From positions 570,001-602,000 of the forward strand of contig CP064964.1 of assembly GCA_016699205.1 (NCBI GenBank): a DNA stretch of 32,000 nucleotides, in the 5' to 3' direction. Shown here one piece after another: positions 7,683 through 20,659 of the stretch (the stretch's first letter is position 1; every line of letters begins with the position of its first letter). The stretch is from Candidatus Saccharimonadota bacterium. Lineage in GTDB: Bacteria > Patescibacteriota > Patescibacteriia > 2-12-FULL-60-25. Below the pieces are notes generated by a model that was given only the letters and a program-made list of their open reading frames with translations, had not been told where the DNA came from and searched no databases. The position numbers and the translations under genes are program-made.

Positions 7683-7715
7683 AAACGCCGCCCCGACAGA
7701 GTCGGGACGGCGTTT
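7683..7715 (-). terminator. Intrinsic terminator closing the 17-cistron array
   Basis: Arms AAACGCCGCCCCGAC 7683-7697 and GTCGGGACGGCGTTT 7701-7715 (14 bp, 1 mismatch). On the minus strand this is followed by UUUCUCAUUU. Confidence 0.65.
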
Positions 7716-7728
7716 CAGAGGGTGCCCG

Positions 7729-9480
7729 TTAGGGCGCGATGGCGATGGTGCGCAGCGAGAGATCTCCGAGTCCGTACTCGTTGATCCAGTCGCGCGAACC
7801 GCCAGTCGTTGCGGTGAGCGTGTTGTGCGGGGAATCGGTCACATCGGACCAGGCGACGACGAACGAAGCGCTCGCGCCGCCAGGACCGGAGTCCGTTCCC
7901 TGGTCGATGGACGCGGATGGACGCGGGCCGACAGAACCGACGATATCATCGGCCAGGTAGCCGGTGGCAGTGTCGGTTGCGGTCGAGGCAGCGATGCCGA
8001 TGGACAGGACGTCCGTTCCGAGGATGTCGCCCTGAAGCGCCATCTGTACCTCGATCACGGCCGTACCGTCGACGGCGAGGCCTCCCGGGAAGGAGAGCCA
8101 CGCGCGTGCGACATCCGGCGCAGGGAAGAGGTAGACGGCGCTACGGAGATCGGTTCCGTCTTCTGCGAAGATCGTGGCCGAGTCTACCGGTCCGCCGTCC
8201 CGAAGGACGTTCATGCCGTAGAACGAGTACGACGGCGTGGTCGTCGCGTAGTCGGGCGTCATGGTGCGATCGAACTCGAGCAGGATGCGTCCGAGCTCGC
8301 CGCGGCCGGTGACGGTCATGCGCAGGAAGGTGAAGGAGCGGCCCCGGAAGAGCATCGCATCCGTCACTTCCTCGAGCGCGATCGAGAGCGAGCTTCCGCG
8401 TGCCACGAGCGTGTTGCCCGTGGTCGGCGCGGAAGACGAGGTGCAGGGCGCGGCCGAAGTCGCGCCAGTACCACTGACGCTCTCGAAGCCGAGGGCGATG
8501 CGGTTGCCGGACACCGGAGTGCCAGCAGCCGAACCGACCGACGAGCGAGGCACGAGCGTCGCGAGACGCGCGCGCAGCTCGAGCGGCTGCTCGACGTCGC
8601 GATTCAGGATGGACATGCCACCCGTCAGCGTGATGTCGATGCTCGTGTCTGCGCCGGCGACCGCCGTTCCGACTTCCTCGCCGCCGATGAAGACGGCAAT
8701 GTCGTCGTAGGAGGCGGGATCACCTGCGAGGGTGATGCTCGCCTGCTCGAGAACGATGTTCTCGCCGGTGGCGGTGATCGTTCCGCTCGCGATGAGCTGG
8801 AGCGTGCCGTCGGGAACGATCATGCCGGTGGGACTGGCGGGATCGAACTCGACGACGATGTCGCCGGCTGGAGCAACGGGAACGCCGAGCATGGGATCTT
8901 CTCCCGTTGCACCGGCTTCACGCATGGCTTCCGCGGTGACGTTCACGGGCACGGCGCCCATGTCCATACCGAGAGCCTCGATGTCGACGACGTCCGCGAT
9001 GCCGACCGTGACGAGCTCGCCCGACGGATTGTCGAGCGCGCTGTCGAAGTCACAGCGGACGCCGAGACGCAGCTCCCCCATCGCAGGAACGAGCACCGAA
9101 AGACCGGTGAACGCCATGCGACCGGAAGCATCCGGGATGACCGCCGACGAGATGAGGTTGTCCGCATCGTCGTACAGCGAGCAGTTCTCCACCACACGTG
9201 CGAAGTCGCTCGCGCGGAAGGAGCCCGTGATATTGGCCTGACCGGTGAGGGTCAGCGTGGGAACACTCGTGTCCGGATCACCAGGGTCCGAGGTGAGAAT
9301 GACATCGTTGACGGGAACGAGCTCCCCGCCGGCGACGCCACCGCTCGAACCCGACGACTCGATGTCCGCCGTGAGAGCGGCGTTGGTCGAGCTGACCGGA
9401 AGGGTCGACGGATTGGTGCTGCAGGCAATGAGCAGCACGATGCTGCTCAGGGTGTAAAGGAGCTTTCGTACCTGTACCAT
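7729..9480 (-). CDS. Array cistron A17: large lipoprotein, unknown function, C-terminal WSD...GGSRDW module
   Basis: GGAGG lies 5 nt upstream of ATG 9480. The signal peptide has a lipobox (MVQVRKLLYTLSSIVLLIAC). The 583-aa T/G/A-rich beta-type sequence has a C-terminus paralogous to A06. Stop is TAA. Confidence 0.75.
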   Translation of the reverse strand: MVQVRKLLYTLSSIVLLIACSTNPSTLPVSSTNAALTADIESSGSSGGVAGGELVPVNDVILTSDPGDPDTSVPTLTLTGQANITGSFRASDFARVVENCSLYDDADNLISSAVIPDASGRMAFTGLSVLVPAMGELRLGVRCDFDSALDNPSGELVTVGIADVVDIEALGMDMGAVPVNVTAEAMREAGATGEDPMLGVPVAPAGDIVVEFDPASPTGMIVPDGTLQLIASGTITATGENIVLEQASITLAGDPASYDDIAVFIGGEEVGTAVAGADTSIDITLTGGMSILNRDVEQPLELRARLATLVPRSSVGSAAGTPVSGNRIALGFESVSGTGATSAAPCTSSSAPTTGNTLVARGSSLSIALEEVTDAMLFRGRSFTFLRMTVTGRGELGRILLEFDRTMTPDYATTTPSYSFYGMNVLRDGGPVDSATIFAEDGTDLRSAVYLFPAPDVARAWLSFPGGLAVDGTAVIEVQMALQGDILGTDVLSIGIAASTATDTATGYLADDIVGSVGPRPSASIDQGTDSGPGGASASFVVAWSDVTDSPHNTLTATTGGSRDWINEYGLGDLSLRTIAIAP

Positions 9481-9560
9481 TACTTCCTCCATGTAAAATA
9501 TTACACCTTTCAGGGGTTTATGCAACGCGCATAAGCCTCTGAAGGAGTGCGGGAACCGGC
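9481..9560 (-). repeat. Intercistronic spacer IE16 (divergent member): long imperfect hairpin plus SD
   Basis: In mRNA sense: CCUUCAGAGGCUUAUGC-GCGUU-GCAUAAACCCCUGAAAGG, followed by GGAGGAAGUA-AUG. Confidence 0.4.
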
Positions 9561-10571
9561 TCAACTCCGATGTATTTCTACATTGGATGAGCAGGTTCCC
9601 GATGGCTCAGAATGAGCCAGAAACGGTGAGGGTCGCGTGATCGGTCGAGACCGAAGGCGAGACCAGGACACCGGTTGCAGGAGCGTGGCGCCCGCACCAG
9701 CCGAGGCCAGTCCGAGCGCGAGGAAGACGTACTGCAGCGCCTCGAGCGTTGCACCCTCGGAGCAAAGGCCGCGTACGTGACCGACCTGCTGCATGGCGTC
9801 GGGGACGCTGAGGCCATCCACCGGGAGGATGTTGCCGTCGCTCGCGTTGGAGCAGGCGTCACCGCCGGAACCGAACGTGAGGCGATGACGATAGTCGATC
9901 AGCGACGGGTCGCTGTTCAGATCGTTGAGACGTATCCAGACCGGGATGTCGGCGAGGAGCAGCGCCGCACCGAGACCGATGAGCGACCAGCCTGCCCACT
10001 CGTGGTTGTACGAGGCAGGAGCCGGATGCGGATCGAGGATGACGTCGGACGAAGGCGGAATGACGTCGGCGACCGCCGGAACCGGATTGGGCGAGACGTG
10101 CAGGCAGTCGATGAGCGATGGTCCTGCCACAGACGCCATGCTGTCGATCTGCTCTTGCGAAGGCATCAGCGGAAGACGGCCCGTGTAGTGCGAGACGACG
10201 CGATGCTGGTGAAGGTCGAAGTAGTTGAGCTCGACCTCGAGCTCTTCTGCGATGTCGGTGTTGACCCTGTGGGTCGTACCGAAGACGAGCGTGCCGACAG
10301 ACATCGCGTTCGCGATCCGATCGAGACACTCGATGTTCGTCGAGGCGCAATCGTGAACGAGCACCATCTGCGCGAGCGAGATGTCGCGATCCGACACATC
10401 GCAACCGCGAGCCTCGAGGGCCGTGCGGAGCGAATGCGTCAGGCGACGCGCCTGATCATCATCCCCTTCCATCGAGTTGATGCCGAGAACGAGGACGGAC
10501 TGCGCGGAAGCCATTGCGGGTTGCGTGATGATGAACAGAAGGAACAGGTACGAGAGCATTTGAATGTGCAT
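9561..10571 (-). CDS. Array cistron A16: secreted/membrane protein, unknown function
   Basis: GGAGG lies 6 nt upstream of ATG 10571. The signal peptide is MHIQMLSYLFLLFIITQPAMASA. Two later hydrophobic segments are present. 336 aa, TGA stop. Confidence 0.7.
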   Translation of the reverse strand: MHIQMLSYLFLLFIITQPAMASAQSVLVLGINSMEGDDDQARRLTHSLRTALEARGCDVSDRDISLAQMVLVHDCASTNIECLDRIANAMSVGTLVFGTTHRVNTDIAEELEVELNYFDLHQHRVVSHYTGRLPLMPSQEQIDSMASVAGPSLIDCLHVSPNPVPAVADVIPPSSDVILDPHPAPASYNHEWAGWSLIGLGAALLLADIPVWIRLNDLNSDPSLIDYRHRLTFGSGGDACSNASDGNILPVDGLSVPDAMQQVGHVRGLCSEGATLEALQYVFLALGLASAGAGATLLQPVSWSRLRSRPITRPSPFLAHSEPSGTCSSNVEIHRS

Positions 10572-10680
10572 TGCACACCTCCATCTGAGATTCACGACCT
10601 TCGCCACCATGGCGGGGTTATGAATCCAAGAGGAGCCTCCTGCCGCTGGTTTCACCCAGACGGAAGAAGCAGAGAAACGG
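10572..10680 (-). repeat. Intercistronic element IE15, family D
   Basis: Core 10626-10663 (CCAAGAGGAGCCTCCTGCCGCTGGTTTCACCCAGACGG) is homologous to 18874-18911. Hairpin 2 is CGCCA-TGG-TGGCG. The SD is GGAGG. Confidence 0.7.
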
Positions 10681-11385
10681 TCAGAATGATGGTGTTGTCG
10701 TCACATGTACGAAGCACACGTCACGAGACATGCCGTCGATGCGCAGCGATGTGCTGACGAGTTCGGCCTCGACCGGCAAGCAGCGCGCAACCGGATCACA
10801 ACGCTGAACCGAGAGATGCAAGAGCGCATCGTCCGGACAGGATGCCGTGGAATCGCTTCCGATCCCTGCCGTGTGTCCGGCAAATCCGTCACCGGAACGC
10901 TCGGCGAAGTCGCCTTCTAGGATGAAGCCGAAGGATTCTTCCGCCCTCACCCGGAAGGCAAAGACAATCGGGAGCTCCTGTTCCGGAATTCCTTCATCCC
11001 ACTCGGCGCTTCTGCGGCACTCGAGCCAGTCGAGAACGCATTCGTGATCGAGCACGTCCGAGACTGCCCCATCCACGACACGGATGTTGCCACCCGTGCC
11101 GAAGTAGGATCGGATGCGGCCGCCATAGGCGACCATGCCATCCATCGCTGAGGTGATGCGCACCTTGTAGACGACCTCGTTTGGAGGCAGCACGTCTACA
11201 GGATCATGCCAGTAGTGGAAGTAGTTGGCGGGACCGTCCGGATGCGGACCGCAGGAAGCGGGGTTGTACTCCCGCGTGCAGGCGCTGACCGGAAGCGGAA
11301 CGGGATTCTCCTCGCGCTGATGCGAGAGATAGCAACCCGAGATCCACGATGCGAACAACGTGATGATTGTGATGCGAATGTACAT
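10681..11385 (-). CDS. Array cistron A15: lipoprotein, unknown function
   Basis: GGAGG lies 4 nt upstream of ATG 11385. Lipobox signal peptide MYIRITIITLFASWISGC. 234 aa, TGA stop. Confidence 0.75.
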   Translation of the reverse strand: MYIRITIITLFASWISGCYLSHQREENPVPLPVSACTREYNPASCGPHPDGPANYFHYWHDPVDVLPPNEVVYKVRITSAMDGMVAYGGRIRSYFGTGGNIRVVDGAVSDVLDHECVLDWLECRRSAEWDEGIPEQELPIVFAFRVRAEESFGFILEGDFAERSGDGFAGHTAGIGSDSTASCPDDALLHLSVQRCDPVARCLPVEAELVSTSLRIDGMSRDVCFVHVTTTPSF

Positions 11386-11522
11386 GTGTCCTCCAGCTTC
11401 GGCCTCCGACGGAAATCGTCAGAAGGCGGAGAGGAGAGCCGATCGACCGCGAGTGAGCGCGGGATCGGCTTCCAGTCTGGTTCTGGATTCCCGCCTTCGC
11501 GGGAATGACAGATGAGAAGGTG
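11386..11522 (-). repeat. Intercistronic element IE14, family E, carrying an extra ATTCCC-N8-GGGAAT palindrome
   Basis: Core 11420-11470 is homologous to 12181-12227 (hairpin CCGCG-AGTGAG-CGCGG). The inserted palindrome ATTCCCGCCTTCGCGGGAAT lies at 11486-11505. The TAG stop sits in GAAGGTGCTAG. Confidence 0.75.
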
Positions 11523-12122
11523 CTAGAGAATCTCGAAGCGGTTGCTCCAGAGCGTCTCGATGTCGACGCTGTAACGCATGTCGTCGAGGATCTGGTCTGC
11601 ACCGGTGATGCCGATGCGGAACGAGCTACCCGACGAGAGTGGCGCCGTGCGCACGAGAACGAGCATGTTCACGCGCGAGTCGGTCAGCGGGAGCGTGCGG
11701 ATGTGCTCGTCGAGCTCCACGCAGACATGCGTGCTGCCCGAGAAGCCACCCATGTGCACTCCGTGCATGAACGTCGTGCGCGAGATCGGCCCGAGAGACG
11801 CGATGGCGACATCTGCGATGTCCGCGGGATCACCATCGAGCTCGAGGCAGATCGCGGACAGGTCCTGGCTGTGACCGATCCAGGCTCGCGCGACCTCGTG
11901 CCACTCGCCGTCGCCTGCGATGAGATCACCTCCCATGGGCGTGTCGCCCGGAGTGATGTCGACGGTCGGCACAGGGCCGGCGTCGGTGAGGACGGGGCCC
12001 GAGTCGCCGATCGTGGGACCGGCGTCAGCCATCGGCATCGCCATGTGGGACGAGTTGCAGCCGAGAGTGACGAAGCAAGCGAACGAGACGAACAGAACCA
12101 TCAACGTGTTGCGAATGTGCAC
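11523..12122 (-). CDS. Array cistron A14: lipoprotein with DAG-rich linker, unknown function
   Basis: GGAGG lies 6 nt upstream of GTG 12122. Signal peptide (M)HIRNTLMVLFVSFACFVTLGC. 199 aa, TAG stop. Confidence 0.7.
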   Translation of the reverse strand: MHIRNTLMVLFVSFACFVTLGCNSSHMAMPMADAGPTIGDSGPVLTDAGPVPTVDITPGDTPMGGDLIAGDGEWHEVARAWIGHSQDLSAICLELDGDPADIADVAIASLGPISRTTFMHGVHMGGFSGSTHVCVELDEHIRTLPLTDSRVNMLVLVRTAPLSSGSSFRIGITGADQILDDMRYSVDIETLWSNRFEIL

Positions 12123-12253
12123 TTGGCACCTCCATCTTCGGCCTCCGTCCCGTAAAGTCTGCACTATGCAGATCACGGGACAGAAGGCGGAGAGGAGGCC
12201 CGATCGACCGCGAGTGAACGCGGGATCAGAGCCAGTTTAACAGAGTAAAAGAA
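12123..12253 (-). repeat. Intercistronic element IE13, family E with hairpin H2
   Basis: Core 12181-12227 has hairpin CCGCG-AGTGAA-CGCGG. H2 hairpin at 12147-12181 is homologous to 13726-13767 with compensatory inner-stem changes. Confidence 0.75.
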
Positions 12254-13081
12254 CTACTTCTTGGGCGGACCCAGGTGTTCGCGGACGAAGCGCGTGGCGG
12301 CCTCGAGCTCCTTGAAGGAGCTGGCTTTCACGAACTGGCGCGAGCCGTGCACGGGGCCGCTCATCGGACGTCCCTCCGCGTCCTTGCGATCGGAGAACGG
12401 GAAGTTCTCGAGACCGAGGGACGGGCGGAACGTGCCGATGAAGAAGATGCCGTAGACCTCGTTGTACTGGACGCCCCAGTCGTAGCCGCTGATGTAGGCG
12501 CCCTGTAGTCCGCCGTCGCGGATGACGAAGGGGATGCCGTCGACGAGGGTGAAGTTCTTGCGCATCGAGAGCAGCGTGTCGTACGCGGCGGCGATGCGCA
12601 TGGGCGGATTCTGCGCGAGCGCGCGGAACGCGTGGAGCTGGCGGGCGAACGACTCGTTGTCGATACCGCCCTCCTTGCAGATGGAGCAGGCGGCGAGCCA
12701 CCAGCAGGTCTCGGACTCGGCATCCATCTTGATGGACGCCTCGCTGCCGAGGCCCAGGTAGAACTCGCTGCGCACTTGCTCGACCGCCGCCTCGGTGTAG
12801 GCGGCGTGGAGCGTGGCGGAGAGCGTCTGCTTCTCGGCCGGGATCATGTTGAGCGCGCAGGCGATGCCGGCGTCGAAGCCGGGGGCCGTGTCCAACATGG
12901 TGGGCACACGCGAGACGAGCGAGCGCTCGCCGTCGATGTATACGGGCCAGCCGCCGAGTCCCGCGATGCGGGGAACGGACAGGCGGACTTGCTCGCGCAG
13001 GAAGTCGAGATCGGTGACCGTGAATTGCTTCATGCCATCGATCATGAGAAGGAACATGTCGGTTGCGACCAATTGATTCAT
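12254..13081 (-). CDS. Array cistron A13: hypothetical soluble protein
   Basis: GGAGG lies 6 nt upstream of ATG 13081. 275 aa with GC3-rich codons, TAG stop. No family recognised. Confidence 0.75.
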   Translation of the reverse strand: MNQLVATDMFLLMIDGMKQFTVTDLDFLREQVRLSVPRIAGLGGWPVYIDGERSLVSRVPTMLDTAPGFDAGIACALNMIPAEKQTLSATLHAAYTEAAVEQVRSEFYLGLGSEASIKMDAESETCWWLAACSICKEGGIDNESFARQLHAFRALAQNPPMRIAAAYDTLLSMRKNFTLVDGIPFVIRDGGLQGAYISGYDWGVQYNEVYGIFFIGTFRPSLGLENFPFSDRKDAEGRPMSGPVHGSRQFVKASSFKELEAATRFVREHLGPPKK

Positions 13082-13216
13082 CTAGAACCTCCAGCTTGGA
13101 ATCCCGATTTCTCGCAGTAGCGCGAGTTTGATCGGGAGTCCGAGAAGAGGGCGGCAGCGTCGAGACGAGTGACGGGGCCGCGCTTATGGGGAAGTGAAGG
13201 GGCGGAAGGGAAGGTG
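13082..13216 (-). repeat. Intercistronic element IE12, family A
   Basis: The 50-nt core 13136-13185 is identical to 13768-13817, 14327-14376 and 14932-14981. It has a unique hairpin 2 (CCCGAT...ATCGGG around CTCGC-AGTAGC-GCGAG). The TAG stop sits in GAAGGGAAGGTGCTAC. Confidence 0.85.
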
Positions 13217-13705
13217 CTACACGCGGACGAACAGGAAGCGGCGGTCAGCGTCCCACTCGAGCTCGAACCAGCGGTTGCCGAGGCCACGCTCGTCGCCGCG
13301 GCCGCTCAGGACCGGGACGTACCGACGGTTGCCGCCGCTGTCGATGAAGGAGCCGAGATCGACGATCCAGAACTTGCGCTGAAGACCAGGGTTGGCCTTG
13401 GAGAAGGCTTCGCGCTCGGCTGGGAAGGCTAAGCGGTAGCCGTTGCCCTTGGCCCACTCGATCGCCTGCTCACTCGTGGAGGCGCGATCGAACTTCTTGA
13501 GGAAAACAACCTTGTCACCAACGGAAGGCGTGATCTCACGTAGCGACTTGTGGAGCTCGAGCATGTACTCGCTCTCGTTCCACACATCGCTCACCCAGTC
13601 GTAGGCCAACTTGAGGTCGGCGAAGGCTGGGTTCGTGGTCGAGGTGACCGTGATGCGGTAGTGATCCGCGGGAAGATCGGTCTGAACACTCTGAAGACTT
13701 GTCAT
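13217..13705 (-). CDS. Array cistron A12: paralog family member (with A09, A10, A11), unknown function
   Basis: GGAGG lies 6 nt upstream of ATG 13705. 162 aa with MTSLQS..., ...QRKFWIVDLGSF..., ...RFLFVRV. About two-thirds identical to A10 by eye. TAG stop. Confidence 0.8.
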   Translation of the reverse strand: MTSLQSVQTDLPADHYRITVTSTTNPAFADLKLAYDWVSDVWNESEYMLELHKSLREITPSVGDKVVFLKKFDRASTSEQAIEWAKGNGYRLAFPAEREAFSKANPGLQRKFWIVDLGSFIDSGGNRRYVPVLSGRGDERGLGNRWFELEWDADRRFLFVRV

Positions 13706-13842
13706 CTCTACCTCCAGCTTGGAGTCACCATCCCGTAAAATTCGCACGATGCGAATCACGGGATGATGAGTCCGAGAAGAGGGCGGCAGCGTCGAGACGA
13801 GTGACGGGGCCGCGCTTTCAGAAAGGTAAGGAGGAACAGAAA
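13706..13842 (-). repeat. Intercistronic element IE11, family A with hairpin H2
   Basis: Core 13768-13817, H2 hairpin 13726-13767. The post-stop box reads UUCCUCCUUACC in mRNA sense. Confidence 0.85.
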
Positions 13843-14289
13843 CTACTTGATCTCACGGAAAGCCATGCAACGATGGCCTGCTACACGCCTATCTTCGATC
13901 CAGGCGCCACGAAGCTCACGATCCTGACCTTGACGAGAAAAGAATGGATAGTCGAGGCGGCCATCAGACCATCGGAAGAGCCTGCTGTCCTCGAATGGGA
14001 TCGTCGAAGAGTGACCCTCGGGATCATTCTCCATGATCCAGCAGAGGTAAGCCGGGACGTTCCCATCAACACTAAGCCCCTTGAAGTGCTTACGCGCTTC
14101 TTCTGTGGTCGTAACCTGATCGGTACCCCACTCGATGGCTTCGTATGACCTGCCGACTTCGCCGCGCATGAAGTCCCATTCGAAGGTATGGAACCTGTGC
14201 AAGCTGATGCGGCGGAATCTACTTTCGAACTTCGCCATGAACTCGGCTGTAGTCAGATCAGGTATGATTATTTTTTGAGAGCTTGTCAT
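13843..14289 (-). CDS. Array cistron A11: distant paralog of A09/A10/A12, unknown function
   Basis: GGAGG lies 6 nt upstream of ATG 14289. 148 aa with MTSSQK..., ...YEAIEWG.... It appears visibly less GC-rich than its neighbours. TAG stop. Confidence 0.7.
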   Translation of the reverse strand: MTSSQKIIIPDLTTAEFMAKFESRFRRISLHRFHTFEWDFMRGEVGRSYEAIEWGTDQVTTTEEARKHFKGLSVDGNVPAYLCWIMENDPEGHSSTIPFEDSRLFRWSDGRLDYPFFSRQGQDRELRGAWIEDRRVAGHRCMAFREIK

Positions 14290-14406
14290 CTCAATCCTCC
14301 AGCTTGGAGTCACCACACGTTGTGATGAGTCCGAGAAGAGGGCGGCAGCGTCGAGACGAGTGACGGGGCCGCGCTTATGGGGAAGTGAAGGGGCGGGAAG
14401 GAAGTG
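14290..14406 (-). repeat. Intercistronic element IE10, family A with hairpin H3
   Basis: Core 14327-14376. H3 is CACCACA-CGT-TGTGATG at 14311-14327. Confidence 0.85.
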
Positions 14407-14895
14407 CTACTCGCGGACGAACAGGAAGCGGACGTCGGCATGCCACTCGTTGCCGAACAAGTAGCGGCCGAGGTCGCGCCCGCCATCGGAGCCGCACAGA
14501 ACCGGGACATACCGGCCGCCGTCGTCGACGAGGAAGGAGCCGAGGTCCACGATCCAGAACTTCCGCTGGATGTCGGGGTTGGCCTTGGAGAAGGCCTCGC
14601 GCTCGCAGGGGAAGGCCGGGCGATAGCCGTGGCTCTTGCCCCACTCGATCGCTTCCTCACTCGAGGTGTGACGGTCGAACTTCTTGATGAAGACGACCTT
14701 GTCACCAGTGGTGGGCTCGAGCTCGCGCAGAGACTCGTGGAGCTCGAGCTTGTAGTCGCCCTCGCACCACACCCGACTCACGCCGTCGCCGTAGTTGGCA
14801 ATGAGACCGGCGTAGGCAGGGATCGCGGTCGAGGTGACCGTGATGCGGTAGTGATCCGCGGGAAGCGCGTTCTGTACACTCTGAAGACTTGTCAT
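14407..14895 (-). CDS. Array cistron A10: paralog family member, unknown function
   Basis: 162-aa ORF. The first ~69 nt are nearly identical to A12 (4 differences by hand). The SD upstream is replaced by an A-run. TAG stop. Confidence 0.75.
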   Translation of the reverse strand: MTSLQSVQNALPADHYRITVTSTAIPAYAGLIANYGDGVSRVWCEGDYKLELHESLRELEPTTGDKVVFIKKFDRHTSSEEAIEWGKSHGYRPAFPCEREAFSKANPDIQRKFWIVDLGSFLVDDGGRYVPVLCGSDGGRDLGRYLFGNEWHADVRFLFVRE

Positions 14896-15001
14896 CTCTA
14901 TTTTTAGCTTGGAGTCACCACACTGCGTGATGAGTCCGAGAAGAGGGCGGCAGCGTCGAGACGAGTGACGGGGCCGCGCTTAGGATGAAGAAGGGAAGGT
15001 G
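14896..15001 (-). repeat. Intercistronic element IE9, family A with hairpin H3, SD mutated
   Basis: Core 14932-14981, H3 14916-14932. Plus-strand ATTTTT at 14900-14905 replaces the ACCTCC found in the sister copies. Confidence 0.85.
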
Positions 15002-15451
15002 CTACTTGCGGACGGCTAGGAAGATGTAGCCACGAACCCACCGGAACGGATATTCGATCCAGTACATGCCGAGGTAGCGACCGGCGTCGCCCCCGTTCGC
15101 GCACGGCGAGCCGAGACCGCCGCCTTGCCAGCAGACAGAGCCGAGAGCGACGATCGGGAACTTGCGCTGCTCGTCGGGGTACTGCTTGGTAAAGCCGAGC
15201 AGCTCCTCATAGAGAGCGGGGCGGAACCCGAGGCGGTCGAGCTCGGCGAGGATCGCGTCCGTGTGCATCTCCTTGTCGAGATGCACGAACTCGAACTCGA
15301 TCTCTCGACTCTCGGTCGAAACGTCCTTGCAGATGTCGATCGCCTTGAAAACCGCGCCGTTGAGGGGGACGTCCACCCAGTCGTACGCCTTTTTGAGGTC
15401 AGTGTACGAGGGCTGACGGTACTCGACGTGGGCATTGAAGGAACTGGTCAT
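15002..15451 (-). CDS. Array cistron A09: paralog family member, unknown function
   Basis: GGAGG lies 6 nt upstream of the second ATG (15451). 149 aa with MTSSFN..., ...AYDWV..., ...QRKFPIVALGS..., ...IFLAVRK. TAG stop. Confidence 0.75.
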   Translation of the reverse strand: MTSSFNAHVEYRQPSYTDLKKAYDWVDVPLNGAVFKAIDICKDVSTESREIEFEFVHLDKEMHTDAILAELDRLGFRPALYEELLGFTKQYPDEQRKFPIVALGSVCWQGGGLGSPCANGGDAGRYLGMYWIEYPFRWVRGYIFLAVRK

Positions 15452-15584
15452 CATTTACCTCCACCTTGGACCTCCGACCTCTCGCGATCTTGCGAGGTTG
15501 GTCAGAAGTCCGAGAAGAGATGCTTCCGGCCGCTAGTTTCATCTAGGCGGTAGAAGCGAGAAGAGAAAGGGCGGTTGGTGCGCA
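15452..15584 (-). repeat. Intercistronic element IE8: unique hairpin 1 plus hairpin H1
   Basis: AAGTCCGAGAAGAG box at ~15507. Hairpin GCTTCCGGCCGCTAG-TTTCAT-CTAGGCGGTAGAAGC. H1 at 15469-15503 is homologous to 19645-19678 and 20178-20212. Confidence 0.7.
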
Positions 15585-15827
15585 TCATGAGATCGCTACC
15601 GATACGACGATGACCACGATCGCGAGGATGGTGGCGATGGTCATGGTGAGCGCGTAGAACGGGGTGCGCGTGAGCTCGCCGGGGCGGAAGTTGTGGAAGC
15701 CAAAGGCGATGCCGAGCGCGATGATGCCGGCTTGGCCCGAGCGGAACAGAATCTCACCGACGACGAGCGCGATGAGAAAGAGCAAGACGACGAGCGTGAT
15801 CGCGATGATCATGAATGTCTCCATCAT
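15585..15827 (-). CDS. Array cistron A08: small polytopic membrane protein
   Basis: 80 aa with about three hydrophobic helices (METFMIIAITLVVLLFLIALVV...). The SD is weak (GGTGG). The start could be 15827 or 15824. TGA stop. Confidence 0.55.
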   Translation of the reverse strand: MMETFMIIAITLVVLLFLIALVVGEILFRSGQAGIIALGIAFGFHNFRPGELTRTPFYALTMTIATILAIVVIVVSVAIS

Positions 15828-15927
15828 CGGCCACCGAACTCGACACTGCGTCGGGTTGCGGGGGCCAGTGAGGAGAGCCGACCGTTGAGTGAACAACGGT
15901 GCGGCTCGATCCAGCGATTGGAAGGTG
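15828..15927 (-). repeat. Intercistronic element IE7, family B
   Basis: Core 15870-15914 is identical to 16806-16850 (hairpin GAGCCG-ACCGTTG-AGTGAA-CAACGGT-CGGCTC). The TAG stop sits in GGAAGGTGCTAG. Confidence 0.8.
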
Positions 15928-16761
15928 CTAGCTGCCGCAGTAGTGGTCGATCTCGTATTGGATCGTGGCTTCGCGGTAGAGGCGGTCGCCGTCGAACAGT
16001 TCAGCGTTGATGATCGTCTCGCCGACGCAGAACGTGACGAAGAACCCATCCATCATCATGATGTCGCGTCCGCGCAGCCACGGCTCGGCGAGATAGTACG
16101 TGACGGTCGGGTCGGCGATCCTTCGGAGGACATTGCCGTGGTCGACGACGTAGCTCGCGGGATCCGTGATGATCGCGACGGTTACGACACCGGGACGCAT
16201 CGGCACATTGCCGTTGATTCGGATGGAGGCGAGCAGCTCATCTGGAATCTGCGTCACCTGTCCGCAGGCGTAGTCGTCACGACCGAACCGCACGTCGCGG
16301 GATGGATCGAGATACCAGCTCGTGAGGAACTGGGTTGTCGGGAAGACGTATCGGTTACCATCGTTGGCGATGTAGTAGATCTGGCTTCCAGATCCCTTCA
16401 CCAGCATTCCCGGCTCGACATGGTCTGCCGTCGGGAAGACGCCCTCGATCGCACAGCAGCCGCGGAATCCTCCGCGATGCTCGACGTCGGGCGTCCAAGG
16501 ATCGCAGAACGCATATCGACCGAGCGGTGCGACATGCGCATCAGGCGCGGCGAAGGCGTCTGGCTCGACATGGGCGTCGGTGCCCGCATCGGATCCTGCA
16601 TCCGGCGTCGGCATGGGGGCCGCGTCGGCAAGGACCGTGGCGGCGTCGCTCAGCGGCAGACCTGCATCGGACGCGGGTGCCGGGCAGGCGTAGTTGATGC
16701 TGGTACAGCCGTTCATCGCCATGAAGGAGATGAGGGCGAGTGCGATCTTGCTGATGTTCAT
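15928..16761 (-). CDS. Array cistron A07: lipoprotein; N-terminal export module shared with A06
   Basis: GGAGG lies 5 nt upstream of ATG 16761. Signal peptide MNISKIALALISFMAMNGC with a DAAPMPTPDAGSD linker. 277 aa, TAG stop. Confidence 0.8.
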   Translation of the reverse strand: MNISKIALALISFMAMNGCTSINYACPAPASDAGLPLSDAATVLADAAPMPTPDAGSDAGTDAHVEPDAFAAPDAHVAPLGRYAFCDPWTPDVEHRGGFRGCCAIEGVFPTADHVEPGMLVKGSGSQIYYIANDGNRYVFPTTQFLTSWYLDPSRDVRFGRDDYACGQVTQIPDELLASIRINGNVPMRPGVVTVAIITDPASYVVDHGNVLRRIADPTVTYYLAEPWLRGRDIMMMDGFFVTFCVGETIINAELFDGDRLYREATIQYEIDHYCGS

Positions 16762-16890
16762 GCGAACCTCCATCTTGGAGCCACCACACATTGTGATGGG
16801 TCCGAGAGGAGAGCCGACCGTTGAGTGAACAACGGTGCGGCTCGATCCAGAGTATGTCGCGCGATGCGTGTCGCGTGACGCGTGAAAGAA
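16762..16890 (-). repeat. Intercistronic element IE6, family B with hairpin H3
   Basis: Core 16806-16850, H3 16782-16798. An extra tandem TGTCGCGCGATGCG/TGTCGCGTGACGCG lies next to the stop. Confidence 0.8.
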
Positions 16891-18267
16891 CTAGCGCGAC
16901 AGCGTCTGCGTCTGAGTGAGGTCCTCGATGTAGAGGCCGTCGGTCCAGTCGCGGGAGCCGCCGCAGCAGCCGTAGAAGTCGGAGTGCGGGACCTCCGAGA
17001 GATCGGACCAGATGAATCCGGCAGCGATCGGAGGAACCGTGCCGGCCGAACCCCACGGGCTCACGTCGAGCGCCGAGTGGATCGGATCGTCGAGCAGGTA
17101 GCCCGTCGAGCCGTTCAACGTGCGGTGGAACGTGAGAGAGATTGTGTCACCCGCGTGCACATCGCTCGGCACAGCCTGCAGGGTGTAGGAGCTGCCACTC
17201 CCAGTCACCGTCTCACCGTCGTCGTGGAAGACGATGATGAGGCGGTGTGAGACGCCGCTCGAGAACGAGATGGCGCCGGCCTCGAGGTTGTTGGCGTACT
17301 CGTCGACGATGTCGTAGTCCGCGGTGTTCATCAGGGTCGAGCCCCGACGGAGACCGAAGCCCGAGAACGTCAGGTCGCCGCTCGAGATCGCGGTGAACGC
17401 GATCGAGTGGAACGAGACCGAACCCGCTGAGTCGGCAGAGACCTGGAACCGGTAGAGGTCCTGGCTCGAGCCGTCGGCGAGCGTCGTCGTTGAGAGCGAC
17501 TGACGCGTGACCGTTGGCTTGGTGCGTCGGACCACGAACTCGTTCCCGTACATGGGATCGAAGTGCGTACTCTCGACGGTGCTTCCGATGCGATACTCGA
17601 TGCCGTAGGCACCGAGGCGGAAACGGTCGCCAGAGTTGCACACGCCGACCGTTGCTCCGCTCACGGATGCCGACGACTGGACGTTTGCAACCCGCACCCA
17701 GATCTGGAAGTAGCCGTAACCGTCTGTGCCGACACTGATCGGTGAGCCGGTGATGTCGATGCGCGTGTACGAGGAGCCAGCACCGGACGGGAACGTTCCC
17801 GATCCGCGAATGACTCCTTCGGAAGCGATCGACACCTGGGTCAGGTCGCCGTAGTCGCCATCGAGCATGACGTTGACGCCTTCGAGCGAAGCGATGGAAC
17901 CATCACTCGCGCGGAAGCGGTAGCTCGCGACGTTTTGCCAGACATCGGGTCCGGCGACGAGGATCGTCGACTGCCGCATGGTGTGCGGCTCGATGATGAT
18001 CGCGGGGCCGATCGCTGCGTCGGCCTCGACGATGACGGCGCTGTCGCTGCCCGCGTCGGGCGTGGGCAGCGGTGCCGCGTCGCTTGCGACGTACATGCCC
18101 GCATCCCCCATCGGGATACCGGCGTCGCCCATCAGCATCGGCCTTGCGCCGGAATCGAGCTCAGCTCGACTGCTGTCGCTTCCGCCGAAGATGATGTTGA
18201 TGGTGGTGCAGCCGTTCATCGCCATGAGGGCGACGAGGGCGAGCGCGATCTGCTTGATGCTGTTCAA
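16891..18267 (-). CDS. Array cistron A06: lipoprotein; N-terminus like A07, C-terminus like A17
   Basis: GGAGG lies 4 nt upstream of TTG 18267, at the position homologous to the A07 ATG. Signal peptide (M)NSIKQIALALVALMAMNGC with a DAAPLPTPDAGSD linker. C-terminal ...FIWSDLSEVPH...GGSRDW.... 458 aa, TAG stop. The 212-codon upstream extension of the tracked ORF is rejected. Confidence 0.7.
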   Translation of the reverse strand: MNSIKQIALALVALMAMNGCTTINIIFGGSDSSRAELDSGARPMLMGDAGIPMGDAGMYVASDAAPLPTPDAGSDSAVIVEADAAIGPAIIIEPHTMRQSTILVAGPDVWQNVASYRFRASDGSIASLEGVNVMLDGDYGDLTQVSIASEGVIRGSGTFPSGAGSSYTRIDITGSPISVGTDGYGYFQIWVRVANVQSSASVSGATVGVCNSGDRFRLGAYGIEYRIGSTVESTHFDPMYGNEFVVRRTKPTVTRQSLSTTTLADGSSQDLYRFQVSADSAGSVSFHSIAFTAISSGDLTFSGFGLRRGSTLMNTADYDIVDEYANNLEAGAISFSSGVSHRLIIVFHDDGETVTGSGSSYTLQAVPSDVHAGDTISLTFHRTLNGSTGYLLDDPIHSALDVSPWGSAGTVPPIAAGFIWSDLSEVPHSDFYGCCGGSRDWTDGLYIEDLTQTQTLSR

Positions 18268-18392
18268 GGAGCCTCCGAATTTGTTGTGAGTTGTTGCTGT
18301 TCTTTCATCGTTGATCCACGACCGAGTCGCGGATCCAAGAGAAAGCCCATGAGAAGATTTTGTTTCGGTCCATGGGTAGACCGTCGGATGCA
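18268..18392 (-). repeat. Intercistronic element IE5, diverged family C
   Basis: Core 18335-18376 (CCAAGAGAAAGCCCATGAGAAGATTTTGTTTCGGTCCATGGG) resembles 19683-19725. Hairpin 2 is GATCCGCGAC-UCG-GUCGUGGAUC in mRNA sense. Confidence 0.6.
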
Positions 18393-18830
18393 TCACTGCA
18401 TCCTGTCGTGGAATGGGAGCGGGAGCTTGCGCTCGACGGGGCGGATGACGCTGGCGAGCGATTCCCGCTGGCGCTCGAGCTTGTCGTCGAACGAATCGCA
18501 CTCCTTCCACGCGGCGCGGGCCTTGTAGATGAAGCGGATGCCGATCGACGTGAACATCACCCCAAAGGTGAAGACCACGCCGACAGGAAGGAAGTCGGGC
18601 ACGCGCGGCGCGATCACGTAGACCGCGTTGACGCAGAGGGCGAGTCCGATCGAGCTCACGACGACCGCGAGCAGCAAGTACGCGATCACCGCGTCGAGCT
18701 GGCGTCCGCGGAGCACCACGAGCTTTTCGTTGCGCTTCTGCGGCTCGGGCTCGGGGACGTGGCGGACCACGCGACGGTTGCGGTAGACGGCGAGGTCGAT
18801 GGGGCGACGAGCGAGCGGGCTGTTGTTCAA
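18393..18830 (-). CDS. Array cistron A05: membrane protein (two central TM helices)
   Basis: GGAGG lies 7 nt upstream of TTG 18830. 145 aa, TGA stop. No family recognised. Confidence 0.6.
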   Translation of the reverse strand: MNNSPLARRPIDLAVYRNRRVVRHVPEPEPQKRNEKLVVLRGRQLDAVIAYLLLAVVVSSIGLALCVNAVYVIAPRVPDFLPVGVVFTFGVMFTSIGIRFIYKARAAWKECDSFDDKLERQRESLASVIRPVERKLPLPFHDRMQ

Positions 18831-18935
18831 ATGATTGCCTCCGGCTTAGGTCCGCGACGAGAGTGTCGTGGAGCCAAGGGGAGGTTCGTGCCGCTGGTTT
18901 CACCCAGACGGTCGAACGGGAGAGGGAAGGTGCAG
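18831..18935 (-). repeat. Intercistronic element IE4, family D
   Basis: Core 18874-18911 is homologous to 10626-10663 (hairpin CCGCTGG-TTTCAC-CCAGACGG). The SD context is CCUAAGCCGGAGG. Confidence 0.7.
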
Positions 18936-19268
18936 CTATCGTCTCTTCTTGTAGATCTCACAGAGGCTGCGGGTGCTGTAGTACAGGATCTGGCAGCTCA
19001 CCGCCGCGATGTGTACGGCCACATACGCTACCGCGAGATAGAGAGGTATCTCCGGATTGATTCCGTCGACCTTGAAGCCCAGGAAGAAGAACCAAAGGCC
19101 GCATGCACCCATCCCCGCTCGCAACAGATGTGCGACGTGAGCCGTTTCCGTCGCGTTCCGATCGTACTTCTGCTCGTGGCGGAAGTACTTGCGAAGACCA
19201 TCGATGTTCATGAACAGTCCGAGGATCGCGCAGACGGTGAGCAGTGCGTAGAAGATCACCTGGTTCAT
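18936..19268 (-). CDS. Array cistron A04: small polytopic membrane protein
   Basis: GGAGG lies 6 nt upstream of ATG 19268. 110 aa with about three hydrophobic helices. TAG stop. Confidence 0.7.
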   Translation of the reverse strand: MNQVIFYALLTVCAILGLFMNIDGLRKYFRHEQKYDRNATETAHVAHLLRAGMGACGLWFFFLGFKVDGINPEIPLYLAVAYVAVHIAAVSCQILYYSTRSLCEIYKKRR

Positions 19269-19380
19269 TCTGTGCCTCCGGCTTAGGTCCACCACAATGT
19301 GTGATGGAGCCAAGAAGAGGGCGGCCTGCGTCAAGACGAGTGACGGGGACCGCGGCTTCAGAGGTTAAGAAGGGAAGGAG
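19269..19380 (-). repeat. Intercistronic element IE3, diverged family A with hairpin H3
   Basis: Core 19307-19358 (GAGCCAAGAAGAGGGCGGCCTGCGTCAAGACGAGTGACGGGGACCGCGGCTT). H3 at 19290-19306. The TAG stop sits in GAAGGGAAGGAGCTAG. Confidence 0.7.
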
Positions 19381-19626
19381 CTAGCGATAGCGTGAAGTGC
19401 TCGGTGGAGAATAGTCGATGCTGATGAAGTTCTTGGCGCCGGTGTTGAACCAGCGCAAGTTCTTGCTCTGATAGTCCTCCGGGACCCCGCAGTTTTCTCG
19501 GGTGACACGGAGACAGATCATGCTCTCGTTGACCTCCATGAGCTCACCGCGAATATGCGAGGCTCTAACTTCTTCGTTTCGCAACTGGGCGACAGTCACG
19601 ATCTTTCCGATCAAATCTTTGAGCAT
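19381..19626 (-). CDS. Array cistron A03: small hypothetical protein
   Basis: GGAGG lies 6 nt upstream of ATG 19626. 81 aa, TAG stop. No family recognised. Confidence 0.65.
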   Translation of the reverse strand: MLKDLIGKIVTVAQLRNEEVRASHIRGELMEVNESMICLRVTRENCGVPEDYQSKNLRWFNTGAKNFISIDYSPPSTSRYR

Positions 19627-19741
19627 CGTATGCCTCCAGCTTTGGCCTCCGACCTCTCGCGATGTTGCGAGGTTGGTCAGAAGTCCAAGAAGAGTCCCCT
19701 GAGAAGTTTTTGTTTGGTGCAGGGGCACACCGTGAAAGGAG
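19627..19741 (-). repeat. Intercistronic element IE2, family C with hairpin H1
   Basis: Almost the whole spacer matches 20162-20274. Core 19683-19725 (hairpin CCCCTG...CAGGGG), H1 19645-19678. Confidence 0.85.
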
Positions 19742-20161
19742 CTAGAGGATCACGCGAAGCGGGAGGTTGGCCTCCTTCACGCGCTCGGCGACTCCCGGGT
19801 AGGAGTACTGGCCTCCGTCGGAGAAGCTCTCGAGCTGTAGCCCGAGCGGCTTCAGGTCGTGAGCGACGAGCATCGTGTTCAGACGCTCGAAGGACTGCTC
19901 GCCGTCGTCGGCGTCTCGCCAGAGCGCGCGGCCATCGGCCTCGGCCTTGGTCAGCGCGTCGACGATCTTGCCGTGGACCGCTTGGCCTTCGGCGTCGTTC
20001 TTGTAGAACCACTTCACCTCGTTGTACTTGCCCGAGGGATCGAAGGCGTGCTGGCGCCGACAGCCGAAGTAGAACAGGCCGGTCGCGAGATCGCTCTCGG
20101 TGACGATGCCATCGCGGAGCGCACGCAGAAGCGCAGTGAACGAAACGAAGAGTGCGGTCAT
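19742..20161 (-). CDS. Array cistron A02: hypothetical soluble protein
   Basis: GGAGG lies 6 nt upstream of ATG 20161. 139 aa, TAG stop. No family recognised. Confidence 0.7.
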   Translation of the reverse strand: MTALFVSFTALLRALRDGIVTESDLATGLFYFGCRRQHAFDPSGKYNEVKWFYKNDAEGQAVHGKIVDALTKAEADGRALWRDADDGEQSFERLNTMLVAHDLKPLGLQLESFSDGGQYSYPGVAERVKEANLPLRVIL

Positions 20162-20274
20162 GAGAACCTCCACCTTTGACCTCCGACCTCTCGCGATGTT
20201 GCGAGGTTGGTCAGAAGTCCAAGAAGAGTCCCCTGAGAAGTTTTTTGTTTGGTGCAGGGGCACACCGTTGAAGA
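20162..20274 (-). repeat. Intercistronic element IE1, family C with hairpin H1
   Basis: Core 20217-20260, H1 20178-20212. It is a near-duplicate of IE2. Confidence 0.85.
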
Positions 20275-20481
20275 TCAGTTGTAGAGGACGAGCACGCCGG
20301 GCTCGACGGTGATGGTGACGCCGTCTTCCACGTAGCTCGAGGCCTCGCCGATCAGGTAGACCTCGGGGGCGCGGACGGTCTTGTCCGTGTCGGCGAGGGC
20401 GGTGCTGGTGCAGCCGGAGATGTTGGCGGTGATGGGGGCGAAGGCGATGAGGGCGAGGATGAGGCGGATGGTCTGGTTCAC
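20275..20481 (-). CDS. Array cistron A01: small lipoprotein
   Basis: AAGGAG lies 6 nt upstream of GTG 20481. Signal peptide (M)NQTIRLILALIAFAPITANISGC. 68 aa, TGA stop. Confidence 0.65.
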   Translation of the reverse strand: MNQTIRLILALIAFAPITANISGCTSTALADTDKTVRAPEVYLIGEASSYVEDGVTITVEPGVLVLYN

Positions 20482-20609
20482 AGGGAGCTCCTTGGTTTTC
20501 AGCCACGACCGAAATGGTCATGGACAGACTAAAACCAGCCCGTGGTCGCGGACTGGCTTGAGTCTTTTATTGTGAAATGGCGACCAACCCATTCCTTTAC
20601 TGACCATAT

Positions 20610-20638
20610 AATATAGCACAATAAGTCCTTTTTGTCAA
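20610..20638 (-). promoter_or_regulatory. Near-consensus sigma70-type promoter driving the array
   Basis: On the minus strand, TTGACA (rc of 20633-20638), a 17-nt spacer ending TGC, then TATATT (rc of 20610-20615). The predicted TSS at ~20603 gives a ~120-nt leader. Confidence 0.65.
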
Positions 20639-20659
20639 GCAAAGTGAACATTATTATTG

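Follow-up and report, generated by a model that had tools for sequence, protein, structure and literature searches.

A structured spacer element with an embedded Shine-Dalgarno sequence in a native, expandable cassette operon of Candidatus Uhrbacteria

Genomes of bacteria in the candidate phyla radiation (CPR) are tiny and encode few regulators that can be recognised, and experimental genetics is all but absent in the group. A locus between the genes for a kinase of the PfkB family and a DUF2207 membrane protein bears on how such bacteria regulate their accessory genes and vary their surface. It lies in a stretch of 32,000 nucleotides (nt) of contig CP064964.1 (positions 570,001 to 602,000), hereafter the window, and a first-pass annotation had described it as a minus-strand array of G+C-rich open reading frames (ORFs) separated by conserved spacers and embedded as a foreign island in a mid-G+C housekeeping backbone. 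Where do such genes come from, how is each of them expressed, and what is the sequence repeated between them? What lies in the pfkB–DUF2207 interval is an operon native to Candidatus Uhrbacteria, specific to that lineage and fixed in its chromosomal position. The description as a cassette array with conserved spacers was right and is strengthened by comparative evidence, and the reading as a foreign island was wrong. The new content is a structured element that embeds the Shine-Dalgarno (SD) sequence, together with a single expandable slot.

The array consists of 17 minus-strand cistrons (A01 to A17, 20481-7729) between a promoter (20638-20610) and a terminator hairpin. All of the cistrons listed earlier were recovered, 16 by a search for an SD sequence followed by a start codon and A10 by its ORF and its homology to A12; a GGAGG or GGAG sequence lies 3-7 nt 5' of the start codon in 16 of 17 cistrons, the exception being A10 (AAAAA), and the long plus-strand ORFs in the array look like shadows of G+C-rich coding DNA. 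The near-consensus promoter of the earlier description has 11 of 12 consensus matches. A consensus scan of 14.5 kb found 2 such sites where 3.3 were expected, a count that is not significant alone, and it is the position that is conserved: a promoter of the TTGACAAA...TGCTATATT type stands at the array head in every related locus whose head is present. It was matched by regular expression in the window, L006 (where it is identical to the window's), L118, L122/L125/L060, L121 and L127 (L numbers denote the loci compared), and the head of the L119 array carries TTGACAAAAT-N17-TATGAT, found by eye. One conserved predicted promoter thus heads a same-strand string of promoterless cassettes.

The intercistronic spacers (n = 16) are 80-137 nt long, and 14 of the 16 share one modular architecture. 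Directly after the stop codon comes a CU-rich tract, followed by hairpin 1, a box CTCYTCTYGG (CUCYUCUYGG in RNA), hairpin 2 (its base conserved, its top variable), a box YCNAAGNYGGAGG and, after 3-7 nt, the start codon of the next cistron. The GGAGG of the second box is the SD sequence. Eleven spacers were folded independently. All of them form hairpins 1 and 2, the base of hairpin 2 joining CCUCU to the GGAGG (z between -1.9 and -7.2), and in all eleven minimum free energy (MFE) folds the CCUCU:GGAGG helix contains a U-G wobble and is flanked by internal loops. An SD sequence held in a helix with weak or non-canonical pairs distinguishes RNA thermometers and SD-occluding riboregulators, and the predicted fold has this property.

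Alignments of the element back the fold. Among 14 short-type copies from six genomes, 89% of the cells are paired, compared with 38-49% when the 3' partners are slid, and the U-G wobbles are conserved; in the 68 rows that comprise all model matches, 88% of the cells are paired (37-54% when slid) and 11 of 19 pairs change on both sides, but this larger alignment leans towards the model because it was fitted to it. Hairpin 2 combines its conserved base and variable centre with conserved unpaired positions. On the coding strand, G-U pairs outnumber A-C mismatches by 84 to 35, which favours a structure read on the sense strand. With the covariance model R1, 14 of the 16 window spacers score 28-70 bits; no other part of the window gives a match, and neither do the unrelated loci L001, L004, L007, L009, L113 and L114. 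Scores on the antisense strand are about 40 bits lower, partly by construction. In the window and about 300 kb of related loci, strong matches occur in arrays only and on the coding strand only, and in the long contigs scanned all of them lie in the pfkB–DUF2207 interval. Rfam 15 yields no match in 7600-20900 even at E <= 1, and in the whole window only RNase P RNA and tRNA-Ala. As the first-pass annotation had held, the spacers differ from the attC family of integrons, the boxes RYYYAAC...GTTRRRY being present on either strand in 0 of 16. No description of the spacer element or of the locus was found in the literature. It is well supported that 14 of the 16 spacers make up one structured element family, not described before, with a fold backed by covariation; that they are conserved and alignable had been seen earlier, and that each is folded and contains the SD sequence had been missed.

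Hairpin 1 has variable stems and recurrent loops. A comparison of the window spacers with those of L006, L020, L086, L110, L112, L116 and L119 gives a few families that recur across species, YUCACU, RUGAAA and GGUGUGCCCCUGCACC...CAGGGGA, in which the stems covary and the loops are conserved; the complementary loops UUCAC and GUGAA suggest either kissing loops or one DNA palindrome in both orientations. Hairpin 1 was also considered as an intrinsic terminator and rejected, there being no U tract 3' of it. A 33-nt nested hairpin has apparently been inserted in the loop of a short hairpin 2, A16 orthologues in other species are preceded by the same hairpin-2 type, and in L127 the element occupies the 5' untranslated region directly after the promoter, ahead of the first cassette. 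In the spacer before A06, where both sides of the basal helix have changed, the true SD sequence lies about 30 nt 3' of the pseudo-SD helix in a CA-rich unstructured stretch. The hairpin that matches the spacer before A10 retains GGAGG in L006 and L123, and A10, judged from its AAAAA, may be poorly translated. The ATTCCC-N8-GGGAAT palindrome pointed out earlier is present in the spacer before A15.

Relatives of the locus were recovered by homologue look-ups and two pattern scans. The pattern used first at genome scale was permissive, and of its 99 stretches about 95 were single chance matches, and the metagenome matches L115, L117, L120 and L130 were rejected as false, lying antisense within large conserved ORFs (likely clpB). 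At least ten Uhrbacteria-like assemblies have this pfkB–array–DUF2207 interval; they share the head promoter, and the number of cassettes ranges from 2 to 17. With the 17 cassettes of the window as the reference, L006, whose flanks are 87-99% identical in DNA sequence, has about 15; L110, L111 and L118, with PfkB 84% identical, have 4-5, namely A05, A13, A16 and A17; L119 (PfkB 78% identical) has about 4; L060, L121, L122, L125 and L129 (53-61%) have 2-3; and L127 (50%) has 2. The arrays of L109 and L112 end in A15-A16-A17, and L112 carries an extra A15 paralogue. A05, A13, A16 and A17 co-occur in L110/L118, and the arrays of 2-3 cassettes retain A13- and A05-like genes.

Homologues with a named source come only from Candidatus Uhrbacteria, and the syntenic loci have the same gene order. 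A12 and A13 are identical to IPH19_02955 and IPH19_02950, respectively, of Candidatus Uhrbacteria bacterium; an exact sequence look-up of A13 and PfkB returned no record, with differing start calls the probable reason. The flanks in the window, with RNase P RNA, tRNA-Ala and the genes for FemAB, RuvA, thymidine kinase, NrtR, PfkB and DUF2207, are as expected of a CPR genome. An island in a foreign backbone does not agree with the recurrence of the interval in Uhrbacteria-like genomes whose PfkB is 50-84% identical, nor does the proposed proteobacterial or myxobacterial donor agree with homologues named from Uhrbacteria only and with DAG-rich lipoprotein linkers that recur in Uhrbacteria-like relatives. 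An assembly chimera, raised as a possibility in the same annotation, is excluded because independent assemblies (L006, L109, L110, L111, L112, L118 and L123) show the same junctions.

Three of the related stretches, L110 (CAYZVS010000001.1, 172 kb), L020 and L086, are labelled as metagenome-assembled genomes of "uncultured Gammaproteobacteria". L110 has the gene order of the window (RuvA, FemAB, DoxX, pfkB, array, DUF2207, CHASE2 cyclase), and L020 and L086 have the same spacer element and related cassettes; all three are likely mislabelled or misbinned. The DUF2207 gene of the window (5934-7629, minus strand) is split into overlapping ORFs, 7306-7629 and 5934-7457, and is a single gene of 530-576 amino acids (aa) in L006, L109, L110 and L112; the split is a frameshift that represents either a true pseudogene or an assembly error. 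RuvA (27837-28387, minus strand) is likewise split, into an N-terminal part (28133-28387) and a C-terminal part (27837-28136) with a 4-nt overlap, and is intact (184 aa) in L110.

The content of the slot turns over at a fixed site. Between the window and L006, shared cassettes are 91-100% identical and most shared spacers 100% identical. In L006, A02-A04 are swapped for one unrelated gene encoding a 93-aa lipoprotein, A10 is swapped for a frameshifted relative of 47% identity, A12 is absent, and an extra 110-aa cassette, bracketed by a direct repeat of CTCCTCTCCGCCTT, stands ahead of A15. In this comparison, spacers account for 14.9% of the array and contain eight of the ten ends of homology blocks (binomial P = 8e-6). 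In L123, identity to the window is 100% as far as the eighth nucleotide of hairpin 2, A11 included, and 99.9% from 12 nt past the A12 stop codon onward; between the two, in place of A12, lies an unrelated membrane ORF of about 101 aa. One slot in three near-identical strains thus holds A12 (window), nothing (L006) or an unrelated membrane ORF (L123), and single cassettes differ even between strains whose flanks are 99.9-100% identical. The exchange boundaries are scattered over the 5' box, the hairpin top, the SD box, the first codons and a point about 12 nt after the stop codon. That A12 was simply deleted in L006 between 54-nt identical hairpin-1 repeats was rejected: at the junction the upstream hairpin-2 top is retained, and the N-terminus of A13 is a different one. 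Syntenic intervals differ in content among relatives and among near-identical strains; the earlier expectation of accessory behaviour is confirmed, since identical content in all relatives is not what is found. In L006, the A10-like, A16 and A17 cassettes (9885-10865, 14474-15496 and 15497-16173) are broken by frameshifts or by an insertion of about 400 bp with partial duplication, and are either decaying cassettes or long-read assembly errors.

The compositional step remarked on earlier is real. The G+C content is 0.615 in 7630-20884 and 0.544 in the remainder of the window; sliding windows give 0.59-0.67 within the array, with a step at both ends and values of 0.47-0.52 immediately beyond the promoter end, and G+C at third codon positions (GC3) is 0.61-0.97 for the array cistrons and 0.49-0.61 for flanking housekeeping genes. 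The interval exceeds its flanks in G+C content in 9 of 10 related loci, at interval sizes of 1.5-13.3 kb, and high G+C content also marks singleton relatives of A12 and other ORFans of mid-G+C Uhrbacteria. The raised G+C content is a standing property of the locus and not a mark of recent import, and the array shows that raised G+C content need not imply foreign origin. Its cause might, speculatively, be frequent recombination with GC-biased repair. Outside the array, at 4467-5888 (plus strand) and 24391-24819 (minus strand), the window holds further G+C-rich ORFans of 364 aa (GC3 0.90), 107 aa and 142 aa (GC3 0.83), none of which has a match in Pfam or PHROGs or is accompanied by a spacer element; there seems to be a scattered pool of G+C-rich accessory genes in mid-G+C Uhrbacteria.

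The 17 cistrons encode six lipoproteins, one secreted protein, three small membrane proteins and seven small soluble proteins, so that the cassette products, as predicted, are mostly exported or membrane proteins (10 of 17). The lipoboxes assigned earlier to A01, A06, A07, A14, A15 and A17, the signal peptide of A16 and the tiny membrane proteins A04, A05 and A08, with two hydrophobic segments each, were found again. None of the 17 proteins reaches the cut-off of any Pfam family, immunity families included, or has a match in PHROGs or PADLOC, in agreement with the absence of known families reported before, and no placement of most of them in one known pathway was found. Their description as unrelated does not stand: A09, A10 and A12 are paralogous, and regions are common to A06, A07, A14 and A17. 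A17 has 37 representatives among 1.84 billion proteins. A13 has 329 relatives, most of them unnamed, with many invariant residues, among them D70, H92, C135 and E258; a fold search against PDB and BFVD gave nothing at E <= 0.001, only faint DHH/RecJ-like matches at template-modelling (TM) scores below 0.3. One A13 relative of 44% identity lies on a 336-kb IMG/VR contig of uncertain nature, and A13 has no match in the phage collection.

The A09/A10/A12 family has 24 relatives, which in other Uhrbacteria (as in L001, L007 and L009) are singletons with their own promoter between housekeeping genes; these relatives are G+C-rich even in genomes of 53% G+C. Despite a confident model, the A12 fold search gave weak C-type-lectin-like matches only (E >= 0.04), and no function is assigned. 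The family was not found in viral contigs, no viral pattern match exceeds 23 bits, and sequence searches of PDB with the A13 and A12 profiles and with A02, A03, A07 and A11 gave nothing significant. A diversity-generating retroelement acting on the lectin-like A10/A12 pair was considered and rejected, the window containing no reverse transcriptase.

Beyond the spacers, the array has a leader before A01 whose fold is kept in L118 and L119 by compensatory changes (AGACU/AGUCU versus AGACG/CGUCU), with a different inner hairpin sequence. It has no Rfam match and, from its modelled structure, may be a leader that regulates in cis; a mini-ORF of 17 codons follows it in L118. The terminator hairpin given earlier as 14 bp at 7683-7715 is present with a 16-bp stem at 7716-7682. 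In the divergent region between the array promoter and pfkB lies a 21-nt inverted repeat (20761-20781 and 20836-20856, 90% complementary, 54 nt between the arms) that could be an operator or a terminator. The features are listed in the table.

Table. Features of the array in transcriptional order, followed by two ordinary RNA genes of the window. CM, covariance model R1; pLDDT, predicted local distance difference test.
Feature	Position	Strand	Remarks
Array promoter	20610-20638	-	TTGACA 20638-20633, 17-nt spacer with TG, TATATT 20615-20610; 11/12 consensus matches
Structured 5' leader before A01	20482-20609	-	three-hairpin multibranch; MFE -50.2 kcal/mol, z -4.2
A01	20275-20481	-	68 aa lipoprotein (lipobox ISGC); 99% identical in L006; A01-like cassette in L086
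Spacer before A02	20162-20274	-	CM match 20166-20232, 42 bits
A02	19742-20161	-	139 aa soluble ORFan; absent from L006
Spacer before A03	19627-19741	-	CM match 19632-19698, 44.9 bits
A03	19381-19626	-	81 aa soluble ORFan; absent from L006
Spacer before A04	19269-19380	-	CM match 19274-19323, 70.5 bits
A04	18936-19268	-	110 aa, two hydrophobic segments
Spacer before A05	18831-18935	-	CM match 18837-18887, 60.8 bits
A05	18393-18830	-	145 aa, basic N-terminus and two hydrophobic segments; core cassette; homologues in arrays of L110/L118 (52%), L057, L116, L119
Spacer before A06	18268-18392	-	element 18301-18348, 29.9 bits; compensated pseudo-SD CUUUC/GAAAG, both helix sides changed
A06	16891-18267	-	458 aa lipoprotein, DAG-rich linker; A17 paralogue; A06-like cassette in L116
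Spacer before A07	16762-16890	-	CM match 16766-16815, 65.5 bits
A07	15928-16761	-	277 aa lipoprotein; signal peptide in common with A06
Spacer before A08	15813-15927	-	hairpin 1 of YUCACU type, divergent hairpin 2; no CM match
A08	15585-15812	-	75 aa, two hydrophobic segments
Spacer before A09	15455-15584	-	CM match 15457-15523, 35.3 bits
A09	15002-15454	-	150 aa, distant paralogue of A10 and A12
Spacer before A10	14896-15001	-	element 14894-14949, 43.4 bits; AAAAA in place of GGAGG
A10	14407-14895	-	162 aa, A12 paralogue (69% aa identity)
Spacer before A11	14290-14406	-	CM match 14295-14344, 68.4 bits
A11	13843-14289	-	148 aa soluble ORFan; 100% identical in L006 and L123
Spacer before A12	13706-13842	-	CM match 13710-13785, 50.1 bits; long hairpin-2 top
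A12	13217-13705	-	162 aa; small Uhrbacteria family; predicted model pLDDT 92.5
Spacer before A13	13082-13216	-	CM match 13087-13153, 38.1 bits
A13	12254-13081	-	275 aa soluble; core cassette; large unnamed conserved family; 329 matches; model pLDDT 93.3
Spacer before A14	12123-12253	-	CM match 12128-12201, 28.5 bits; z -7.2
A14	11523-12122	-	199 aa lipoprotein, DAG-rich linker (lipobox)
Spacer before A15	11386-11522	-	extra ATTCCCGCGAAGGCGGGAAT hairpin and element, CM match 11389-11440, 41.7 bits
A15	10681-11385	-	234 aa lipoprotein; orthologues L109 (71%), L112 (83%)
Spacer before A16	10572-10680	-	CM match 10577-10639
A16	9561-10571	-	336 aa, signal peptide and one later hydrophobic segment; core cassette; orthologues L109, L110, L112, L118
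Spacer before A17	9481-9560	-	divergent, two small hairpins beside SD; no CM match
A17	7729-9480	-	583 aa lipoprotein; conserved last cassette; 72-92% identical orthologues adjoining DUF2207
Terminator-like hairpin	7682-7716	-	16-bp G+C-rich stem, then CUCAUUUC; MFE -35.5 kcal/mol, z -5.2
tRNA-Ala(UGC)	24912-24988	-	Rfam; ordinary
Bacterial class A RNase P RNA	3861-4312	-	Rfam, 163.5 bits; ordinary

The favoured explanation, with a probability of roughly 0.55, is that the spacers are RNA-level expression adaptors in a native cassette operon and also supply the homology for cassette exchange. In the transcript, the element would act as a standard expression adaptor for each cassette, the basal CCUCU:GGAGG helix of hairpin 2 would mask each ribosome-binding site for as long as it is not melted, unwound or cut, and hairpins 1 and 2 may delimit, protect and stabilise processed mRNA segments, which would resemble T7 RNase III sites or the 5' stabilisers of Gram-positive bacteria. 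Exchange would proceed by homologous recombination or gene conversion, between or within arrays, that swaps, deletes, duplicates and inserts cassettes, because the same 50-130 nt bracket every cassette; recombination between arrays fits the variable positions of the exchange boundaries, and if frequent it may also account for the raised G+C content. The products would probably serve the cell envelope or the partner interaction of a putative episymbiont. The RNA-level part is supported by an SD sequence that belongs to the element, with the start codon in fixed register, by the element in the 5' untranslated region of L127, by the hairpin-2 type kept before A16 across species, by the G-U excess on the sense strand and by the spacer before A06, which keeps its basal helix through CUUUC/GAAAG.

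Several observations weigh against this explanation. In the spacer before A06 the working SD sequence lies outside the conserved helix, so that SD masking cannot be the only reason, if it is one at all, for which the helix is kept. The top of hairpin 2 is unlinked to the downstream ORF, A13 having three different tops in the window, L006 and L086; the spacers have a mosaic make-up with its joints at the two boxes, a pattern that would suit a DNA-level element too; and the main hairpin-1 loops UUCAC and GUGAA are reverse complements that could be one DNA palindrome in either orientation. The boxes that flank some exchanges are 10-18 nt long, which is short for RecA-type recombination, and how genes with their own promoter elsewhere (the A12 relatives in L001, L007 and L009) acquire the element lacks an explanation. 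A more ambitious proposal, advanced tentatively and with considerable doubt, is that one structured element is both the translation or processing adaptor and the recombination site, in which case cassette capture would be convergent with that of integrons and mechanistically unrelated to it. If this is true, any captured ORF could be expressed from the single promoter at one dedicated slot, and a pool of G+C-rich envelope genes would be kept circulating among reduced-genome bacteria via a further enzyme or pathway.

Capture of an integron-like kind, in which the spacer hairpins are single-strand DNA recombination sites like attC served by a recombinase encoded elsewhere, is an unlikely alternative on which much of the same evidence bears. 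It would account for a single promoter, for same-strand cassettes that lack their own and for the structured repeat that separates each pair of them; for a hairpin with a conserved base, a variable centre and conserved unpaired positions; for the rapid gain, loss and replacement of single cassettes, including the extra 110-aa cassette of L006 flanked by the direct repeat of CTCCTCTCCGCCTT; and for what is apparently one array per genome, as far as seen. The helix before A06, the shuffled tops and the reverse-complement loops leave room for such a mechanism with an unlinked enzyme. However, recombinase domains are absent from the flanking window ORFs tested and, in L110 and L118, from the genes called up to about 5-7 kb to each side of the array, 0 of 16 spacers contain RYYYAAC...GTTRRRY, the exchange boundaries do not fall at one position, and the element embeds an SD sequence, persists upstream of orthologous core genes across species and has its G-U excess on the coding strand.

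It is rather improbable that a selfish palindrome, of the repetitive extragenic palindrome (REP), bacterial interspersed mosaic element (BIME) or miniature inverted-repeat transposable element (MITE) type, has colonised the gaps of an ordinary accessory operon with hairpins that have no role in expression. The shuffling of hairpin tops and hairpin-1 types independently of the ORFs, the hairpin-1 loop families that are mutual reverse complements and the 33-nt nested hairpin apparently inserted in a short hairpin 2 loop are all as such an element would leave them, and REP elements are also transcribed between cistrons. Yet model matches are confined to one locus in every long contig examined, the SD sequence and start codon are in fixed register with the element, all copies are on the coding strand, and compensatory change preserves the pairing of the basal helix.

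A stockpile of orphan genes for immunity or defence behind one promoter, like the rAID-1 clusters or the immunity arrays of polymorphic toxins, is improbable to a greater degree. The layout and skewed composition resemble rAID-1 (bioRxiv 10.1101/471110), and small unrelated proteins with rapid turnover would be expected of it, but no XerD-like recombinase is found among the flanking window ORFs tested, no Pfam immunity family or PADLOC match among the 17 proteins, 10 of the 17 products are exported or membrane proteins, and the G+C skew is the opposite one, high here and low in rAID-1. Recent import of an island from a proteobacterial or myxobacterial donor rich in G+C, or else a chimeric assembly, is very improbable and already contradicted, since the abrupt G+C step at both ends and the DAG-rich linkers that favoured it are set against the same junctions in seven independent assemblies, synteny across relatives with PfkB 50-84% identical, source-named homologues in Candidatus Uhrbacteria only and G+C content raised in 9 of 10 genomes, in the singleton A12 relatives and in other Uhrbacteria ORFans. 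Nor did a prophage or plasmid island find support in PHROGs or in plasmid DNA, neither of which gave a match.

With the spacers read as expression adaptors, the structured element is a candidate translational or processing operator, and the pfkB–DUF2207 hot spot is a natural marker of strain-level dynamics and of surface-exposed content. An integron-like architecture with no integron machinery bears on how cassette arrays can arise. In L114 (GCA_027425155.1), a distantly related CPR genome, a G+C-rich A13 homologue lies in a small same-strand cluster, and a repeated two-hairpin spacer of another kind, about 95 nt long, stands before it and again before the gene that follows (7864-8000 and 8721-8840). 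These spacers may be an analogous element family, and the array principle may accordingly extend beyond the element of the window.

The likeness to integrons and to rAID-1 that had been drawn from the layout extends to the turnover of content and not to membership, there being no adjacent recombinase, attC boxes or immunity families. With integron arrays and with CALINs, which are attC clusters that lack an integrase, the locus shares one upstream promoter, co-oriented, promoterless, mostly unannotatable small genes (transcription of the array being predicted), a folded repeat between cassettes with a conserved base and a variable centre, a likeness of shape only, content that varies between strains, and apparently one array per chromosome. 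It differs from integrons in that no IntI is encoded in the flanking window ORFs tested or in the roughly 5-7 kb around the L110 and L118 arrays (none of the tested ORFs that flank the window array has an integrase or transposase domain in Pfam, as the first-pass annotation had it), that its repeats lack R''/L''/L'/R' boxes (0 of 16), contain an SD sequence and abut a start codon, that exchange boundaries are not at one point, and that the core cassettes, set at a fixed housekeeping site, are collinear from species to species. The rAID-1 clusters of Bacteroidales have on the 5' side an XerD-like tyrosine recombinase at least 44% identical to BF9343_RS08045, followed by two or more co-directional genes of low G+C content with homologues of immunity families (bioRxiv 10.1101/471110). 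Many small co-directional genes, repetitive intergenic sequences, a G+C content atypical of the genome and variable content are common to both; in the window, however, the gene upstream of the array promoter is the pfkB kinase, with no recombinase domain in the flanking ORFs tested, the G+C content of the array is higher than that of its surroundings (0.615 versus 0.544), not lower, and the proteins have no immunity-family match and are for the most part exported or in the membrane.

At the RNA level, the predicted helix resembles those of ROSE and fourU thermometers and of the lambda N leader, in which an imperfect helix with G-U pairs and small internal loops joins a pyrimidine stretch to the SD sequence just upstream of the start codon. 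Unlike these SD-occluding cis-acting RNAs, the element recurs ahead of nearly all the cistrons in one operon, has a long, stable and variable upper stem and an upstream partner hairpin, and matches nothing in Rfam. Like the RNase III sites of the T7 early region, the intercistronic expression elements of chloroplasts and the REP and BIME sequences of E. coli, its hairpins between cistrons could define or protect mRNA segments, but it has no sequence relation to these elements; REP and BIME sequences, moreover, are dispersed genome-wide, and the array element was seen only in arrays of the DNA scanned.

As a site of exchange, the locus resembles flexible genomic islands of the replacement or additive type and the minimal mobile elements of Neisseria in having a fixed slot whose content is exchanged by recombination in conserved flanks and in differing between near-identical strains. 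The conserved flanks of the array are internal, repeated, structured spacers, which makes each gene an independently exchangeable slot. Like the vlp, vsp and vsa loci of Mycoplasma, it belongs to a host-dependent bacterium with a small genome and contains clustered lipoprotein genes that share 5' untranslated and signal-peptide sequence (A06 and A07); unlike them, it shows no site-specific inversion system or variation in repeat length, and its genes, many of them non-lipoprotein cassettes, stand in one orientation behind one promoter.

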